Source of the DNA: a virus | Taxonomy: Duplodnaviria > Caudoviricetes | Length of the DNA stretch: 64,000 nucleotides | Reading direction: 5' to 3' (one strand) | Virus record (IMG/VR): IMGVR_UViG_3300005326_000040 | Span: 128,001 to 192,000 of that record | Part shown: piece after piece, positions 23,250 through 62,700 of the stretch | Numbering within the stretch: the stretch's first letter is position 1 | Layout of the letters: each line of letters begins with the position of its first letter | Position numbers and translations under genes: made by a program | The notes under the pieces: generated by a model | Database searches by the model: none | Told to the model about the DNA's origin: nothing | Seen by the model: only the letters and a program-made list of their open reading frames with translations

Positions 23250-24302
23250 ATGGAACGAAAATTAGCTTCAATTCAAAAAGTATCTGAATTATTTCCAATT
23301 GAGGGCGCAGATAAAATCGAAGGATGTAGCGTCCTAGGTTGGCAATGTGTTGTTCAAAAAGGTGAATTCAAGCCTGGAGATATAGGAGTCTACTTTGAAA
23401 TAGACTCTGTTCTCCCTAGCGATAAACCTGAGTTTGCTTTTCTTGAGCCTAGAAAATATAGAATTCGCACTATCCGTTTACGCAAGCAAATTGCCCAGGG
23501 CTTAATGCTTCCCCTGAGCAAAATCACTTACGCCGATCTATCTTCCTTTCAAGAAGGCGATGACGTAACAGAATTGCTTGGGGTTCAGAAGTATGAACCA
23601 CCAGAAGAGAGTGAAGACGGAGCCAACTTCCGTTCTCGTCGGCGAGGAGTCTTTCCTTCTTTCCTTAGAAAGACTGATGAATTAAGAATTCAAAGTGTTC
23701 CAGGTTTTCTAGACCGTCATCGTGGTAAGACTTTTTATGCTACTGAAAAGGTGGATGGAAGCTCAGTTACGCTTTTCTATCTTCAAGATGCTTTATACGG
23801 GAAAGAGTCGGGATACTTTGGCGTTTGTTCTCGTAACATGGAAGTAATGAAAGATGACGGCGACTCTTATCGCAATGCTTTTTGGGAAGCCGTAGAGAAT
23901 TTTGATTTGGAAAACAAGATAAAATCCCTTGGTGCAAACATTTGTGTACAAGGCGAGCTTGTAGGTACAGGTATTCAAAAAAACAAATACAAGCTAACAG
24001 ATAGAAAGATTTTCTTATACAGTGCTTATGACGTTGTAACACAACGTTACATCAATCGCGATAGCTTGGTGCAGATAGCAAACGCTTTAGGTCTTGACAC
24101 GGTTCCGATGTTGGGTGAATTTGTTTTGAATCATACGGTTTCAGAGCTTGTGGAGATGTCTAGAGGATATAGCAAGCTCAATCCTGCAACGTTGCGAGAA
24201 GGAATTGTTTGTCGGCCTATTGAGGAATGCGGTGACCCTGAAACTGGACGAGCCAGTTTCAAAGCTATCCAGCCAGAATTTCTTTTAAAGTACGCTGAAT
24301 GA
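23250..24302 (+). CDS. RNA ligase, DRB0094 family
   Basis: MERKLASIQ start; TEKVDGSS adenylation motif; QGELVG, EGIVCR, SFKAI. Confidence 0.92.
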   Translation: MERKLASIQKVSELFPIEGADKIEGCSVLGWQCVVQKGEFKPGDIGVYFEIDSVLPSDKPEFAFLEPRKYRIRTIRLRKQIAQGLMLPLSKITYADLSSFQEGDDVTELLGVQKYEPPEESEDGANFRSRRRGVFPSFLRKTDELRIQSVPGFLDRHRGKTFYATEKVDGSSVTLFYLQDALYGKESGYFGVCSRNMEVMKDDGDSYRNAFWEAVENFDLENKIKSLGANICVQGELVGTGIQKNKYKLTDRKIFLYSAYDVVTQRYINRDSLVQIANALGLDTVPMLGEFVLNHTVSELVEMSRGYSKLNPATLREGIVCRPIEECGDPETGRASFKAIQPEFLLKYAE

Positions 24303-38258: not shown

Positions 38259-38714
38259 TTGTTTTTCAGATGCAGGAGTTTTATCATGGTTGACCCAACC
38301 ACCCCTCCGCCTCCAAGCAAAGGGCTTTACGTAACTATTTTGGTTGGCTTACCGGGTTCCGGGAAGATGCTCTATGCATCCAACATTACAATCGAAGGTT
38401 TCCCTAGAATCTATATGGATAACATTAGGGACGATGAGATATTCCTCCAAACCATGCATGATGGTTATTCGATTATTATTGCTGACCCTGTTCTTTGTTT
38501 GACTAGCGCCAGGAATATTACCTATCGGAACATAAAAGCCAAGGGGTATTTGTGTTCCTGGAATTATTTCGATAACAATTTGGAGCGATGCTGGGCAAAC
38601 ATCGTAAAACGAAAAGAAGAAAAAAAGTATCCGTATAAGCTACTGAAATGGCTTTCTTCTCAGTATAAAATCCCGACCGATACATCGATGGTTAGAAGCG
38701 TATACATTGCATAA
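38259..38714 (+). CDS. P-loop kinase-like protein
   Basis: ILVGLPGSGK; C..NIVKR lid-like segment; start uncertain. Confidence 0.65.
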   Translation: MFFRCRSFIMVDPTTPPPPSKGLYVTILVGLPGSGKMLYASNITIEGFPRIYMDNIRDDEIFLQTMHDGYSIIIADPVLCLTSARNITYRNIKAKGYLCSWNYFDNNLERCWANIVKRKEEKKYPYKLLKWLSSQYKIPTDTSMVRSVYIA

Positions 38715-53963: not shown

Positions 53964-53991
53964 TTTTCATTCCCAACAAACGAACCGTAAG

Positions 53992-54029
53992 AGGCGGGGC
54001 GGTCACCAGACTGCCCCGCTTTCTTTTTC
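53992..54029 (+). terminator. Intrinsic terminator
   Basis: GGCGGGGCGGTC-ACCA-GACTGCCCCGCT-TTCTTTTT. Confidence 0.85.
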
Positions 54030-54183
54030 TAATACACATAGGACGCGCTTTCAATTCAAAGACGACCCAACGGTTATGATTGAATTGTTTGTCACTCAAA
54101 AAGAATTGAATGTAGGTGTATGTCTTACCTATAAAATGGGTGAATTATTTTAATTGAAGAGAGCTAGGAAGTGGAGATATATA

Positions 54184-56366: not shown

Positions 56367-56621
56367 ATGGGAAAAAAGATTAAGCGAGATAGGATTGAAG
56401 TGATTGGCGAGGTAGTTGAGTCTTTTCGCTCAGCCAGATTTTTGGTGAAGCTCAACGCAAACAGTGCTGAGACGGTAGTAAGTTGTACTCTGTGCGGAAA
56501 GATGAAGGAAAACTATATTAAGATTGTTCCTGGGGATACTGTCGTAGTTGAGCTTTGCCCATACGACATGACCAGCGGACGTATTATTTCCAGAGGAAAG
56601 CAGCGTATGGCAGCAGAGTAA
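56367..56621 (+). CDS. infA: Translation initiation factor IF-1
   Basis: IEVIGEVVE...FLVKL...GKMKENYIKIVPGDTVVVELCPYDMTSGRIISR. Confidence 0.93.
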   Translation: MGKKIKRDRIEVIGEVVESFRSARFLVKLNANSAETVVSCTLCGKMKENYIKIVPGDTVVVELCPYDMTSGRIISRGKQRMAAE

Positions 56622-57890: not shown

Positions 57891-57931
57891 ATGGCCCGAA
57901 ACTAACACCTTCGGGCCGTTTCCTTTAAGGT
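57891..57931 (+). terminator. Probable intrinsic terminator
   Basis: GGCCCGAA/TTCGGGCC stem followed by GTTTCC. Confidence 0.55.
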
Positions 57932-57947: not shown

Positions 57948-58238
57948 ATGCGTTCTGTATGGTGTCCAGCAGATTCGGAACCATATGTAGCCGATTGTTT
58001 ATTCCCAGAATTTAGTTTCCGGGTCAGATCATTTTTAAAGATTAGCGATACTGCGCATATATTATGTTCAACCAAATCGGTATTTGCTCCGTATCGCGTT
58101 GTGCTTCCAGCAAGTAGATTTGATGTAAATTATTATGCGCCTTTTAAACCTTTTGTGATAGTTGCGCACCCTCAGTGGGAGGATCTGTCGTGCGAGGATA
58201 ATGTGAAAATTTTCAAAATACTTAATAGGGAGTACTAA
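57948..58238 (+). CDS. DUF3846-like paralog 7
   Basis: RSVWCPADSEPYV; PFVIV...DLSCEDNVKIF. Confidence 0.55.
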   Translation: MRSVWCPADSEPYVADCLFPEFSFRVRSFLKISDTAHILCSTKSVFAPYRVVLPASRFDVNYYAPFKPFVIVAHPQWEDLSCEDNVKIFKILNREY

Positions 58239-58532
58239 ATGCGCGTTTTGGTTTTTCCTGTAGATGCGGAGCCTTATGTAAAAGACTTTTATGATGACAA
58301 CTTTTCTGGGCAAGCCCAATTGATTGTTGGGCAAAAGCAAAGATGTCTGTTTAGGGCGCCTGGATTTCATCCATATCGCGTTATAACAGGGAATTCAAAT
58401 GTAAACATCGTAAGACCTTTTATTGTAATTTCTGAATTTGCATGGAGTAATTTGTGTTGTGACGATATTACACGCATTTTAAATTTGGTAAAGCAAATGG
58501 AAGATAAAGGGAAAAATAAAAATGAGCATTAA
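58239..58532 (+). CDS. DUF3846-like paralog 8
   Basis: RVLVFPVDAEPYVKD; PFIVI...NLCCDDITRIL. Confidence 0.6.
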   Translation: MRVLVFPVDAEPYVKDFYDDNFSGQAQLIVGQKQRCLFRAPGFHPYRVITGNSNVNIVRPFIVISEFAWSNLCCDDITRILNLVKQMEDKGKNKNEH

Positions 58533-58833
58533 TGATAAACATCAAAAAATGATGGATTATCTTAAGGAAGTAGAATCTATTCTTCCTGAGATTAGTGATT
58601 GGAAGCCTGAAGTACGAGATGATATGCCTGGGCACGCTCGTGCTTTTACAGGAAGTGTGAAGGGGTGGCATGTCGTTGTTGTTGATTTTGACATTAGTGA
58701 TCAGGGATTCCCTCCGGGAACTCGCGGGTATGACGGGGCGGCACGCAATGCGGCGGAAGGAGTAGTTCTTCATTTCACGAGGGAGCTTGCAGAAATAGCG
58801 ATTAGGTTGGCAGTTAGTAAAACCATGGTGTGA
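58522..58833 (+). CDS. Hypothetical protein
   Basis: ORF in string. Confidence 0.55.
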   Translation: MSINDKHQKMMDYLKEVESILPEISDWKPEVRDDMPGHARAFTGSVKGWHVVVVDFDISDQGFPPGTRGYDGAARNAAEGVVLHFTRELAEIAIRLAVSKTMV

Positions 58834-58837
58834 GGCG

Positions 58838-59224
58838 ATGTATTTGGATAGACTTTTCCGCGCTTCTAGAGATAAGCTTTTTTATTGGGCGCAGTTTGAT
58901 CATTTATATCCTCAGATTTATGCTGTAGAATTGTTTTTTGATTCGCCGGTTGTGAGTTTAGATGAAGTGTTATGTTTTGGTCGGGGACATTTTTTATACG
59001 CAGGAGAAAATGGCACTTGGAATGAAAATTCCGCCCAACAAATGACAACGCTTTTGTGGAAGAATATGTCTCATTATGCGCGCGGTTGTAATTTGTCAGC
59101 CGTTTCATTTTCTAATCTTCCCAGATCGATTTTCGAAATAACACTTAGAGAACTTATGTGCAGTATAAAGAAGTGTCCTGGGCCATGGTTGACTGAAGAG
59201 GAAAAACTAAAAGAGATTAAATAA
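58838..59224 (+). CDS. Hypothetical protein
   Basis: GAGG SD; ORF in string. Confidence 0.55.
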   Translation: MYLDRLFRASRDKLFYWAQFDHLYPQIYAVELFFDSPVVSLDEVLCFGRGHFLYAGENGTWNENSAQQMTTLLWKNMSHYARGCNLSAVSFSNLPRSIFEITLRELMCSIKKCPGPWLTEEEKLKEIK

Positions 59225-59235
59225 TCCTATCATTT

Positions 59236-59263
59236 TTGCCATCCATGTTTTTTATGGTATCTC
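59236..59263 (+). promoter_or_regulatory. Sigma70-like promoter
   Basis: TTGCCA-16-TATCTC. Confidence 0.45.
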
Positions 59264-59274
59264 CATAGGAGCAC

Positions 59275-59469
59275 ATGGATGATAAAGAAATGAAATTTGA
59301 ACTCCCCCTTTCTTTTAGTGTTGGGTCACAAGTTACACGGCAGCATGTTGAATTAGCCAAACGGGAAGCAGCATCCTTTCCTGGAGGCTCACGGGAATGT
59401 ATCGCCTGGACTTCTTATGCGAAAAGGCTTGAAAGAGAATGCCTCAAGCAAGAAGAACTGAACAAATAG
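59275..59469 (+). CDS. Hypothetical protein
   Basis: AGGAG SD. Confidence 0.55.
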   Translation: MDDKEMKFELPLSFSVGSQVTRQHVELAKREAASFPGGSRECIAWTSYAKRLERECLKQEELNK

Positions 59470-59954
59470 TTTTTGACGTAAGTCATCATTATTCTATTTT
59501 GCTTGCGCTTGCTTCTCAGGCGCGAGCGCACATGGAAATTCTTGTCAAATTAGCAAAAGGTACATTGCCATGGGGGATGGCAGGGTACTGTGGTGTAGGT
59601 TCCAGACACCTTCAGTCTTTGGCTAAGTCTGCTGGAATCGATATTGATTTGGTATATGGTCGTTATAGCTCGAAGCGTCATTCTTCGGGTCATTGCTGGA
59701 CGGAATATCAAAATAAAGTAATTGATGTAACGGCAACGCAATTCTTTCGAGATCATATTGACGCTCCGATTTATCTATTTGACAAAGGATTTGACAAGCG
59801 CTACATTCCGTTGTATAGGAATGAGCTAGCGGATGAAGTCATTCGGTGTTGGACGCGGGAGCAGAATTATTATTGTTATCGAGATGCGTTAACAACCATC
59901 ACTCGATTGTATGGCTTATCGCTGATTCGAGCAATAACGGAACAAAGGGTATGA
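59439..59954 (+). CDS. Transglutaminase/papain-like Cys-His-Asp protein
   Basis: GYCG...GHCW...IDVTATQF; start uncertain. Confidence 0.6.
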   Translation: MPQARRTEQIVFDVSHHYSILLALASQARAHMEILVKLAKGTLPWGMAGYCGVGSRHLQSLAKSAGIDIDLVYGRYSSKRHSSGHCWTEYQNKVIDVTATQFFRDHIDAPIYLFDKGFDKRYIPLYRNELADEVIRCWTREQNYYCYRDALTTITRLYGLSLIRAITEQRV

Positions 59955-60457
59955 AAATGGGAACCGTAGACACTGGCGCTATGCAATATTTGTATATGAT
60001 TTTTGTTACCCCGCTTGGAAAGGGGTACGGTTGTTTTGCTATCAAAAGGAATGGAGATAACTACACAGTATCATCCTCTTACTGTCACCCAACAGATCGA
60101 AAGCTTTTCCGAAAGGAAGTAGCGAGGGACAAGGCTTGCAAGATGATGCTTGCGCCTCGTCGGAAGAGGTTGGAAGCTTTGGATTCAGTTGGTGCGAAGC
60201 CTTCTGTGACCGTAGTGTTCTCGAAGGAAAGCCCGCAACAGAACATTGAAAATGCAACGATTGTGAACGCTGCTCTTGAACAGCGGCTCATGATGCCCTC
60301 TTGGGCGAAGCGGGCGTACAATCTTCATCACTTTACGTGTGGCTTGACCAAGGACAATATGACTTGGAACAAGCTCGTTGCGGAAGTTGGCGCAGTAGAC
60401 TTCTTGCTTGATCATTTTCGAGCAATGAATATTGTTCACATGGACATAGATTGGTGA
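59951..60457 (+). CDS. Hypothetical protein
   Basis: SYCHPTD..F.K..AR..A motif; ATGA overlap. Confidence 0.65.
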   Translation: MKMGTVDTGAMQYLYMIFVTPLGKGYGCFAIKRNGDNYTVSSSYCHPTDRKLFRKEVARDKACKMMLAPRRKRLEALDSVGAKPSVTVVFSKESPQQNIENATIVNAALEQRLMMPSWAKRAYNLHHFTCGLTKDNMTWNKLVAEVGAVDFLLDHFRAMNIVHMDIDW

Positions 60458-60465
60458 AAGCTTAA

Positions 60466-60610
60466 GGTGGGGCCGGGAACCTGCAATTCCCGGTAAGGCA
60501 CAACAGAAGTAAAAACTTCGCCAGTGCCAAGCCCCTTCACGCGTAGGCTGGTATAACACACCCCTCCGCCTGAAGTCGCTAGACCAGTTTTCCGTGAAGG
60601 GGCCTCACCA
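60466..60610 (+). ncRNA. Candidate novel four-way-junction ncRNA
   Basis: P1 60466-71/60604-09; P2 60472-79/60487-94; P3 60497-501/60524-28; P4 perfect 11 bp 60531-41/60593-603; fills the intergenic gap. Confidence 0.7.
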
Positions 60611-60660
60611 TGGTTTTCCCTTTCTTCTTTTTATCAACTTCAAATTAAAGGAAATTCTTT

Positions 60661-61041
60661 ATGAACGACCCTGCGGTTCGTGGTAAGAGTGTTTTGCGAG
60701 TTGTGCGATGCCCTTTGGATGGCCCGCCAGAGGTTATTGATCTGAAAAACGATTACAGGTGTTTTTCAGAAGCTGTTTTTGATAAGAGCACAGATACAGT
60801 TTATGGGTTTTATTCTGACATTTCTAGAGGGGGAGACAAGTTTGGCACTGATTATATGGTTATTTATGGTTATTATTCCCGCACGGTAAATGTGTATGGA
60901 TATCGCGGGATAATTCTTATTGTGAATTGGGATAAAGCTTCTAATAATGCTGTTGATATGAAGTGCTCAAATATCATTGAGGTCTTCAAAAAGATTACGC
61001 GTTCCAAAGCGGCAAGGAAGCGCGTTAAAAAGGCTAGATAA
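60661..61041 (+). CDS. DUF3846-like paralog 9
   Basis: RVVRCPLDGPPEVIDLKND; GIILI...DMKCSNIIEVF. Confidence 0.6.
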   Translation: MNDPAVRGKSVLRVVRCPLDGPPEVIDLKNDYRCFSEAVFDKSTDTVYGFYSDISRGGDKFGTDYMVIYGYYSRTVNVYGYRGIILIVNWDKASNNAVDMKCSNIIEVFKKITRSKAARKRVKKAR

Positions 61042-61042
61042 A

Positions 61043-61732
61043 ATGGGACTTAGACATAAGAACACTGAAGTAGACGACCATCTTATGGCGACTCTTCCTA
61101 ATCTTGCTCTTTCAGCTGAGCAAAAGGTGCTTGTTGAAAACAATTTGGGTTTGGTTGGACATATTGCCCACGCTTTTGCTGGTTACCAGATGGAACACGA
61201 AGAGTTGTTTCAGTGGGGTTGTTTTGGTTTAATGCATGCCGCAATGAAATACGATGCGGATAAGGGCGAATTCAAAAGCTATGCCGGAACGTGGATTCGC
61301 TGCTACATTAAGAGTGCGGTTAGATTTATGTGGAGCCAAGTAGTTATGAAAAAGACTACTGCGAAAGGAGGCTTTTGGTCGGAAGAAGGAAAGTTTCGCG
61401 GTAGACGTGATGCGTATCTTAGCGAAACGGTTTATAGAGATTCCGAGAATGTAACGTTGTTGGATACATTGTCTGCTAGTTCAGATGGTTCTGTTAATGA
61501 ATTTGAAAAAAGTGAACAGATTGATAGGTTGAGTAAAGTTATAGAAAAGGCAGAACAACATCCTACTTCGCCATTGCTTCCTCGTGAAAAGGAAGTTATT
61601 AAAATGGTGTATTGGGATGATCAGAATTTTGTTGAAATTGGTAAAAAGCAACATGCTCATAAGAATCGGATTGGCTTCGTGCATGACCGGGCGATGGCGA
61701 AGCTGCAACGCGCAGCTGCGCATATCCAGTAA
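61043..61732 (+). CDS. RNA polymerase sigma70-family factor (regions 2 and 4)
   Basis: LVENNLGLV..IA...EELFQWG..GL..AA.KYD..KG.F..YA..WIR; LLPREKEVI...EIG. Confidence 0.9.
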   Translation: MGLRHKNTEVDDHLMATLPNLALSAEQKVLVENNLGLVGHIAHAFAGYQMEHEELFQWGCFGLMHAAMKYDADKGEFKSYAGTWIRCYIKSAVRFMWSQVVMKKTTAKGGFWSEEGKFRGRRDAYLSETVYRDSENVTLLDTLSASSDGSVNEFEKSEQIDRLSKVIEKAEQHPTSPLLPREKEVIKMVYWDDQNFVEIGKKQHAHKNRIGFVHDRAMAKLQRAAAHIQ

Positions 61733-61778: not shown

Positions 61779-61806
61779 TTGACACGGCCCGCGTGCGGTG
61801 TAAGAT
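61779..61806 (+). promoter_or_regulatory. Sigma70-like promoter, leaderless
   Basis: TTGACA-16-TAAGAT; ATG 61813 lies 6 nt downstream (alternative SD-led ATG at 61900). Confidence 0.65.
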
Positions 61807-61812
61807 ACGGTT

Positions 61813-62700
61813 ATGTTTGGCGCCGAGGCATATGCTCGTTTGATGGATTTGCGGGACGAAGATGGCGTTGTTATCGAGCAAAAGGAAAAGCGAGGAAGAA
61901 TGGCTACTTCAAATTTGGAAGAAGTGAAACAATTTGTGCTCTCTTATAAGCAAACTGAAAATGAAGCAATTCTGGATTCTTTGGAATCGGCCGGAAAATA
62001 TGACCGGGCTGTTATTATGAGCGCAATGAAAGCTCTTCAGAATGACGGGCGCGGACGGTTTGTTGTTGGGCGTAAGGGTGGTAAAACCCGTTTTGAATTT
62101 GGCGCGCAGGTTGAAGAAAAGCCAAGCGCTCCTCCCGCGCAGGAATCGAAGATTAACATCATTGCCAATGGGCTCGAAAACGTAATCAAGCAGGAGCAAG
62201 AAAAGAATCCCAACAACCCTCTCATCTTCAATGTTGATGAGCTTGCTGCTCGGGTAGACCGTTCATTGCTTATTGCTGCTTTCCGCGTTTTGGAGACGCG
62301 ACAAATTGGAACGTTCATCGTTGGTCGTAAGGAACAGTCTAGCCGATTTGTGGTGGGAGAGGTCAAGAAGGAAAAGCCGGTAGTTGATGTCATTAGAAGT
62401 TCGGACCCTTCTCGTTATGACCTGCCCGTTCCGGAAGTTGGACCATTCTCTGAAAGCGGAGTATCAGTTCCTGGTCGCGAAGATAAGGAATTGAGCGTTT
62501 CTGGAGCAATGATTCGGCTAACGCCGGAAGCTGTTGTGTTGCTGGTGAATATGCCTGGAGGAAAAGATTCTGTAGAAGATGCAGTGGCGGTAGTTCCGCA
62601 ATTGAGTTCTCTTCCTGAAGACAAGAAGTCTCTGCTTATTGAAGGTTTGAAACGCCACGCTTTTGTTTATACTCAGTTTCTTGGTGTCGAGTTGGAGTAG
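61813..62700 (+). CDS. Protein with two tandem winged-helix-like VGRK..RF domains
   Basis: ALQNDGRGRFVVGRKGGKTRF and VLETRQIGTFIVGRKEQSSRF. Confidence 0.7.
   Translation: MFGAEAYARLMDLRDEDGVVIEQKEKRGRMATSNLEEVKQFVLSYKQTENEAILDSLESAGKYDRAVIMSAMKALQNDGRGRFVVGRKGGKTRFEFGAQVEEKPSAPPAQESKINIIANGLENVIKQEQEKNPNNPLIFNVDELAARVDRSLLIAAFRVLETRQIGTFIVGRKEQSSRFVVGEVKKEKPVVDVIRSSDPSRYDLPVPEVGPFSESGVSVPGREDKELSVSGAMIRLTPEAVVLLVNMPGGKDSVEDAVAVVPQLSSLPEDKKSLLIEGLKRHAFVYTQFLGVELE

Follow-up and report, generated by a model that had tools for sequence, protein, structure and literature searches.

A compact four-way-junction RNA domain ahead of a sigma-factor operon in a huge groundwater phage, tentatively read as a branched terminator

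What role might a compact, almost completely paired RNA domain play in an otherwise tightly packed gene array, directly ahead of a phage sigma-factor operon? The element that raises this question (positions 60466-60610, plus strand) lies in a window of 64,000 nt, the whole stretch of DNA analysed here, which corresponds to bases 128001-192000 of a virus record of 338,055 bp with an estimated completeness of ~97% (CheckV). The record represents an uncultured huge groundwater phage; a groundwater metagenome, which may be the source sample, is the only DNA run listed with the element sequence, and no RNA sequencing run is listed with it. Judging by its large terminase, the phage belongs to a very extensive clade of huge, uncultured phages, where the best relative shares 76% identity and most others share ~55%.

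The genes surrounding the element are all located on the plus strand and tightly packed, and within the same-strand array from ~57948 to 61732 the spacer holding the element is the only large gap. This spacer measures 203 nt and separates a gene of 168 aa from a gene of 126 aa. The upstream gene (59951-60457, +; an ORFan) overlaps the preceding ORF by ATGA, and its TGA stop (60455-60457) is located 9 nt ahead of the first strand of the element. Its protein is on record with the exact sequence as a singleton cluster, and searches of Pfam, PHROGs, PADLOC and NCBIfam assigned it to no family. The downstream gene (60661-61041, +) is a complete ORFan preceded by a Shine-Dalgarno-like AAAGGAAA (60647-60654, +; read from the sequence), and an exhaustive HMMER search among 1.84 billion representatives returned nothing except the 126-aa protein itself. 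Its stop is coupled to the start of a gene for a sigma-70-family factor of 229 aa (61043-61732, +; Pfam Sigma70_r2 and r4, phrog_351, TIGR02937), and these Pfam and NCBIfam assignments support the first-pass annotation in placing the element just upstream of a sigma-factor unit. All proteins of the neighbouring genes are singleton clusters in the cluster look-up; this look-up, a word-indexed search and a full HMMER search yielded only self-matches for the flanking proteins, their leads in the ESM Atlas were all sub-threshold, and PADLOC and NCBIfam gave no match for the ORFans around the element. Further, neither the sigma factor nor the large ORF that comes next has a homologue in 15 large terminase relatives. 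An ORF of 295 aa (ATG at 61813) is directly preceded by TTGACA, 16 nt and TAAGAT (61780-61812, +), which would either constitute a near-leaderless promoter or imply that the true start of the ORF lies downstream. Upstream of the array, an 84-aa gene (56367-56621, +) matches the infA model TIGR00008 for translation initiation factor IF-1, with an E value of 1.9e-20 that passes the curated cut-off.

The gap had been described as folding almost completely into a four-way junction, and every helix named in that description is present in both the MFE and the centroid folds. The closing stem P1 joins GGUGGG (60466-60471, +; pair probability 0.99-1.0) to CUCACC (60604-60609), the 3' strand ending with one unpaired A (60604-60610, +). 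Three hairpins are enclosed by this stem: P2 (60472-60494, +) with 8 bp and a 7-nt loop CCUGCAA (-11.7 kcal/mol when folded alone, z = -3.0), P3 (60497-60528, +) with two helices of 5 bp on either side of a 4x4 internal loop and an AAAA loop (-12.2 kcal/mol alone, z = -5.1), and P4 (60531-60603, +; MFE and centroid folds), the most stable of the three (-30.3 kcal/mol alone, z = -4.0). P4 consists of 11 perfect, 1 and 8 stacked pairs and thus represents ~20 bp of double-stranded RNA, a candidate RNase III substrate; its 8-bp helix includes two G-U pairs and is capped by a loop of 30 nt with CCCCUCC at 60561-60567. The junction linkers measure 0, 2, 2 and 0 nt, in agreement with the earlier description of helices abutting with 0-2 nt between them. 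Pair probabilities are 0.8-1.0 for P1, P2, P3 and the 11-bp part of P4, while the extension helix of P4 is based on the MFE and centroid folds. When the flanks are included (60440-60690), the domain stays as it is and an outer helix is added over the upstream stop codon, formed by GAAAGCU (60456-60462, +) and GGUUUUC (60613-60619). No pairing between the element and the downstream ribosome-binding site is predicted, i.e. the domain is self-contained.

The MFE of 60466-60610 on the plus strand is -66.5 kcal/mol compared to -44.4 +/- 4.0 kcal/mol for shuffled sequences (z = -5.5), and none of the 200 dinucleotide shuffles was as good as the native sequence. The minus strand reaches z = -4.1, and the four G-U pairs of the element form on the plus strand only. 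Against the background of genome-wide 150-nt windows, the element lies 2.9 SD under the GC-corrected expectation, with 41 of 6759 windows equal or lower, and it ranks third by raw energy among the 102 intergenic gaps of at least 100 nt. It is richer in GC than its surroundings, as already noted in the first-pass annotation (57% vs a genome mean of 41.5%), and all three plus frames are closed within it. Given the z value, the individually significant hairpins and the rank against the genome background, the four-armed fold is real and more than chance; the element is a true outlier, yet other structures as strong exist in the same genome.

The 3' letters CCA invite a comparison with tRNAs, and the first-pass annotation had proposed a tRNA- or tmRNA-like acceptor end, displayed in an alternative pairing register. 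A mimic of this kind with an aminoacylatable CCA end is suggested by the cloverleaf-like topology of one closing stem and three arms, by a closing stem of 6-7 bp followed by an unpaired A, and by the tRNA-related enzymes that the phage encodes. However, C143 and C144 of the terminal CCA (60608-60610) pair with G2 and G1 at a probability of 1.0, and since the final A alone is unpaired in the favoured fold, the CCA ending is a coincidence of the P1 sequence. The register with a free ACCA can indeed be drawn, but it comes at a cost of +10.7 kcal/mol. Moreover, the 145 nt contain neither a GTTCRA T-loop nor a D-loop, and the P2 loop has C instead of U at the U33 position. Charging with alanine had been suggested as well, but the G-U pair of the closing stem is found at 5:68 (2:71 in the alternative register) and not at 3:70, which departs from the alanine identity rule. 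ARAGORN called four tRNAs in the window, none of them at the element, the Rfam tRNA and tmRNA models were silent there (RF00005 even at E up to 10), and the tRNA-like rnaC of phage T4, which bears a T-arm, is dissimilar. We thus regard the idea of a tRNA mimic as largely refuted and its residual probability as very small. For a tmRNA proper, next to the negative ARAGORN and Rfam results, 145 nt are too short to accommodate pseudoknots plus a tag ORF.

Other known identities fared no better. Rfam 15 yielded no family at the gathering threshold or at E up to 10, in line with the earlier statement that the RNA matches no known class; riboswitches, ribozymes and leaders gave no match on the plus strand at E up to 10, and the sole Rfam hit at the element is a chance match to chrB-b on the minus strand (E = 1.6). 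The msr-msd RNA of a retron was rejected since a search of all 338 kb for RVT_1 domains (PF00078), with E allowed up to 1, gave no match. A Shine-Dalgarno-binding small RNA, also among the original proposals, or another antisense role could not be substantiated: predicted pairing of the 30-nt loop to 547 start regions (from crude gene calls) gave duplex energies at the level of shuffled loops. As for a miniature transposable element, the ends are inverted repeats that form P1, but the element is present in a single copy and has no flanking target-site duplication. As a separate observation, a 13-mer of the P4 loop, CACCCCTCCGCCT (60559-60571), recurs on the same strand at 38300-38312 within a proline-rich coding stretch, with a chance expectation in the genome of ~0.01; the match is same-sense and the two copies therefore cannot pair with each other.

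The phage itself carries three Y-like RNA units (L102:884-1240) that share the handle GGYUACUUC...UUUCUCCC, and a Ro60 gene with a TROVE domain (L102:1248-2858; Pfam E = 6e-11) ~60 kb from the element. At L102:857-2858 (genome ~247.9-249.9 kb) an early-type promoter is followed by the three units and then by the TROVE/Ro60 gene; at the DNA level the units share GGYTACTTC and a TTTCTCCC tail, and one of them has a GGTTCGAATCC T-arm. YrlA-type Y RNAs (RF02553) resemble the element in having a closing stem around branched inserts and a pyrimidine-rich tail. In contrast to them, the element has no RF02553 match and no tRNA-like T-arm module, and we rejected a Y RNA identity as the element is also without the GGYUACUUC...UUUCUCCC handle and covariance model R1 does not match the Y-like units.

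No relative of the element was recovered from any collection searched. Within its own genome, BLAST, short-word BLAST and model R1 (with and without filters) returned only the element itself, and no DNA similarity was found in near or distant search modes among 50,697 phage records. The terminase led to more than 1000 related proteins and 80 IMG/VR loci; model R1 had no match in 43 terminase-relative records (~4.6 Mb, four of them near-complete), a set that excludes the closest relative L008 with its 76% terminase identity. Pattern scans of six designs (stems fixed, loops fixed, ends fixed, loop 20-mer) across viral, metagenome and species-genome collections gave no true match, the ten metagenome hits being unrelated long perfect palindromes with the same 11-mer arms. 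In two metagenome contigs, perfect hairpins of 52 bp (L095:2779-2888) and 31 bp (L094:7123-7198) contain these P4 arms by chance; they have no relation to the element and might have arisen as fold-backs during assembly. Three other contigs carry the region and are identical over the covered part of the element with one exception, a single A-to-T change that lies 5 nt inside the end of a contig and is probably an error. The depth of contigs over the region is ~5x, and their breaks at 60591-60612, shared by the ENA contigs L002 and L103, probably reflect the same low-coverage reads.

More can be learned from the sequence on the 3' side of the junction. Beyond P1, whose 6 bp stack on P4, the sequence continues with AUGGUUUU and a 19-nt pyrimidine run (60614-60632, +), the U-rich tail that had been pointed out in the first-pass annotation and the longest intergenic pyrimidine run of the genome. 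Five of the eight nucleotides after P1 are T, and the bases AUGG separate P1 from the run. The tail is similar in composition to those of the plain terminators of this phage, which are GC hairpins with C/U-rich tails: one hairpin at ~57893-57921 (+) has the tail GUUUCCUUU (whole terminator ~57893-57930), and another one at ~53989-54020 (+) has the tail UUUCUUUUUCU (whole terminator ~53989-54030). Both are canonical and together define the terminator ‘grammar’ of the phage. The terminator scan did not call the element because its stem encloses a junction and not a single hairpin. One recognisable promoter type of this phage consists of TTGACA, ~17 nt, then TGATATATA; it is enriched in intergenic DNA and precedes the tRNA-Ile gene and the Y-RNA/Ro60 operon. 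Neither a sigma-70-type promoter nor the phage promoter word TGATATATA with TTGACA upstream was found in 60300-60660, and a possible extended -10, TGGTATAAC, within P4 was set aside, as it lacks a -35 element and does not resemble the promoter word of the phage. It is thus unlikely that the element is an RNA gene of its own with a promoter of known type; polymerases must arrive at the sigma operon by read-through, and the element is most simply part of a longer transcript. The final A of the element opens a micro-ORF of 12 codons, MVFPFFFLSTSN (60610-60648, +). A Shine-Dalgarno-like GAAGGGG 7 nt upstream of this micro-ORF is buried in P4, and its stop codon runs into the ribosome-binding site of the downstream 126-aa gene. 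The micro-ORF probably arises as a side effect of the U-rich run, but could also couple translation to unfolding of the junction.

In the most economical reading, the element separates the upstream small-gene block from the 126-aa/sigma-factor operon, and we tentatively propose, with a probability of about 0.4, that it is a branched terminator or a 3'-end-protecting processing structure that gates read-through into this operon. We infer that it is co-transcribed as a cis-acting, intercistronic RNA domain. RNA polymerase leaving the 168-aa gene would first allow the three hairpins to fold, and P1 would then lock them, stacking directly on the long P4 helix as it closes. Together with the 19-nt U/C-rich run, P1 would act as a branched and probably leaky intrinsic terminator, and also as a 3'-end cap that shields the upstream message from 3' exonucleases; the ~20-bp P4 may additionally be cut by a double-strand-specific RNase. 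The fraction of read-through would set the expression of the 126-aa protein and the sigma factor from upstream promoters, and both termination or cleavage at the element and its weight for sigma-factor timing are presumed here from fold and position.

What has been observed is the fold with its statistical excess, the position of the element and the resemblance of its tail to those of the phage's own terminators. The proposal of a branched terminator is favoured by a start only 9 nt past the upstream stop and by the outer helix that covers this stop codon in the flanked fold, by placement in the sole large gap of the array, by the lack of a known-type promoter in 60300-60660 and by the T-rich bases and exceptional pyrimidine run after P1. 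A self-contained domain without alternative pairing to the downstream ribosome-binding site is equally consistent with it, and the genome is rich in structured RNA elements adjoining stop codons, including a 7-copy family of covarying hairpins. On the other hand, the recognisable terminators of the phage are simple, leaving ~100 extra nt (P2, P3 and the big P4 loop) unexplained, the AUGG between P1 and the run weakens intrinsic termination, and the terminator scan made no call. Also, a GC-rich and fully paired build with near-zero linkers seems more ‘designed’ than a terminator requires.

Intrinsic terminators and 3' stabilising hairpins, including the phage's own, share with the element a GC-rich stem after a stop codon and a U/C-rich run, and those of the phage likewise lie on the same strand as the genes and at a break in the packed array. 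While simple terminators have loops of 3-10 nt, the stem of the element closes a 145-nt four-way junction and is set apart from its run by four bases. Intercistronic structures in polycistronic phage messages also include the RNase III signals of the T7 early transcript (R0.3-R1.3) and lambda sib. P4 likewise comprises ~20 stacked bp with small interruptions, and a cut would leave a protective 3' hairpin. The T7 sites, however, are single irregular hairpins, whereas the element is a junction without sequence likeness to them, and P4 is a candidate only for such cleavage. Of similar size are the T4 RNAs rnaC (species 1, 139 nt) and rnaD (species 2, 119 nt; NC_000866, 70908-71171), and rnaC is multi-branched like the element (z = -4.6) and stems from a large virulent phage. 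Yet rnaC and rnaD lie in a tRNA cluster and the element lies 25 kb from one, rnaC has a canonical T-arm that is missing from the element, and model R1 scores nothing on either RNA. Finally, transcript mapping of the giant phage 201phi2-1 revealed 132 termination sites and small RNAs arising from premature termination in 5' UTRs (PMC11512511), which establishes such elements in large phages. The 5'-UTR-derived and intergenic small RNAs of 201phi2-1 and phiKZ (PMC11512511) are structured, located just upstream of a gene and ended by premature termination; they differ from the element in that they were seen as transcripts and that one is conserved across genera.

As the main rival to the terminator reading, the element could be a small non-coding RNA, stable and trans-acting, that is either released when the upstream message ends or processed from a polycistronic transcript. 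It would bind protein or RNA via its displayed loops, i.e. the C-rich loop of 30 nt and the CCUG words that occur in P2 and P4. We consider this unlikely, even if a compact, closed and GC-rich domain with high pair probabilities resembles stable RNAs, the size is comparable to that of the stable T4 RNAs rnaC (139 nt) and rnaD (119 nt), and giant phages possess 3'-UTR- and 5'-UTR-derived small RNAs (PMC11512511). The phage also has genes of RNA biology that would fit, such as Ro60/TROVE with Y-like RNAs, an RNA ligase, tRNAs and a group I intron. Such an RNA would nevertheless have no upstream promoter of known type and no paralogue or homologue in any collection searched, its C-rich loop pairs with the ribosome-binding regions of the phage no better than shuffled loops, and it lacks the handle of the phage's Y-like RNAs. 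Bolder and rather improbable is the idea that the element is the first representative of a novel RNA class in huge phages, namely stable four-way junctions that bind proteins. Released where an early or middle message ends, the RNA would attach to a host or phage factor such as RNA polymerase/sigma, the ribosome or Ro60, and would thus help to time the switch to transcription by the phage's own sigma factor, encoded just downstream.

A place 50 nt upstream of the first start codon of the operon might instead hint at a cis-regulatory leader of the 126-aa/sigma operon, a riboswitch or protein-sensing attenuator in which a ligand or protein would stabilise or open P1 and thereby switch the tail. 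A P1-closed junction beside a U-rich run is a common layout of aptamer plus terminator, and the timing of a phage sigma factor is plausibly regulated. Nevertheless, with E allowed up to 10, none of the Rfam riboswitch and leader models matched, competing antiterminator or anti-Shine-Dalgarno pairings are not predicted, and the junction has nearly no unpaired nucleotides for a pocket. Riboswitch aptamers are normally widespread, whereas the element has no relative in any collection searched. We hold such a leader to be distinctly improbable, a little more so than the absence of any function. The latter would make the element a chance structure or a decaying GC-rich remnant, e.g. of a lost gene or a foreign insert, as the single copy in an accessory region with ORFan neighbours and the deviating GC content might suggest. 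It is nonetheless improbable in view of z = -5.5, three independently significant hairpins with a closing stem and near-zero linkers, the exact placement between a stop codon and a terminator-like tail, and three closed plus frames with no visible repeats or target-site duplication.

Structured RNA is not confined to this locus. A GC-rich (0.52-0.67), ORF-poor and very strongly folding island at L100:1900-11000 (genome 69.9-79 kb) harbours seven copies of a nested, ~63-nt hairpin with a covarying inner stem, as well as two tRNA T-arm-like words that are uncalled as tRNA; Rfam matches there are limited to two tRNAs further on. The RNA ligase gene (23250-24302, +; Pfam RNA_ligase and PHA02142 OB domain, phrog_968) precedes the tRNA cluster and the group I intron by 10 kb.

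At present, thermodynamics and position would be the support for any function of the element. If it is a branched terminator or processing signal, it would be a further case, of modest interest, of a huge phage organising its long transcripts by structured RNA spacers. If it is a discrete stable RNA, it would represent an orphan RNA class beside a phage sigma-factor operon.
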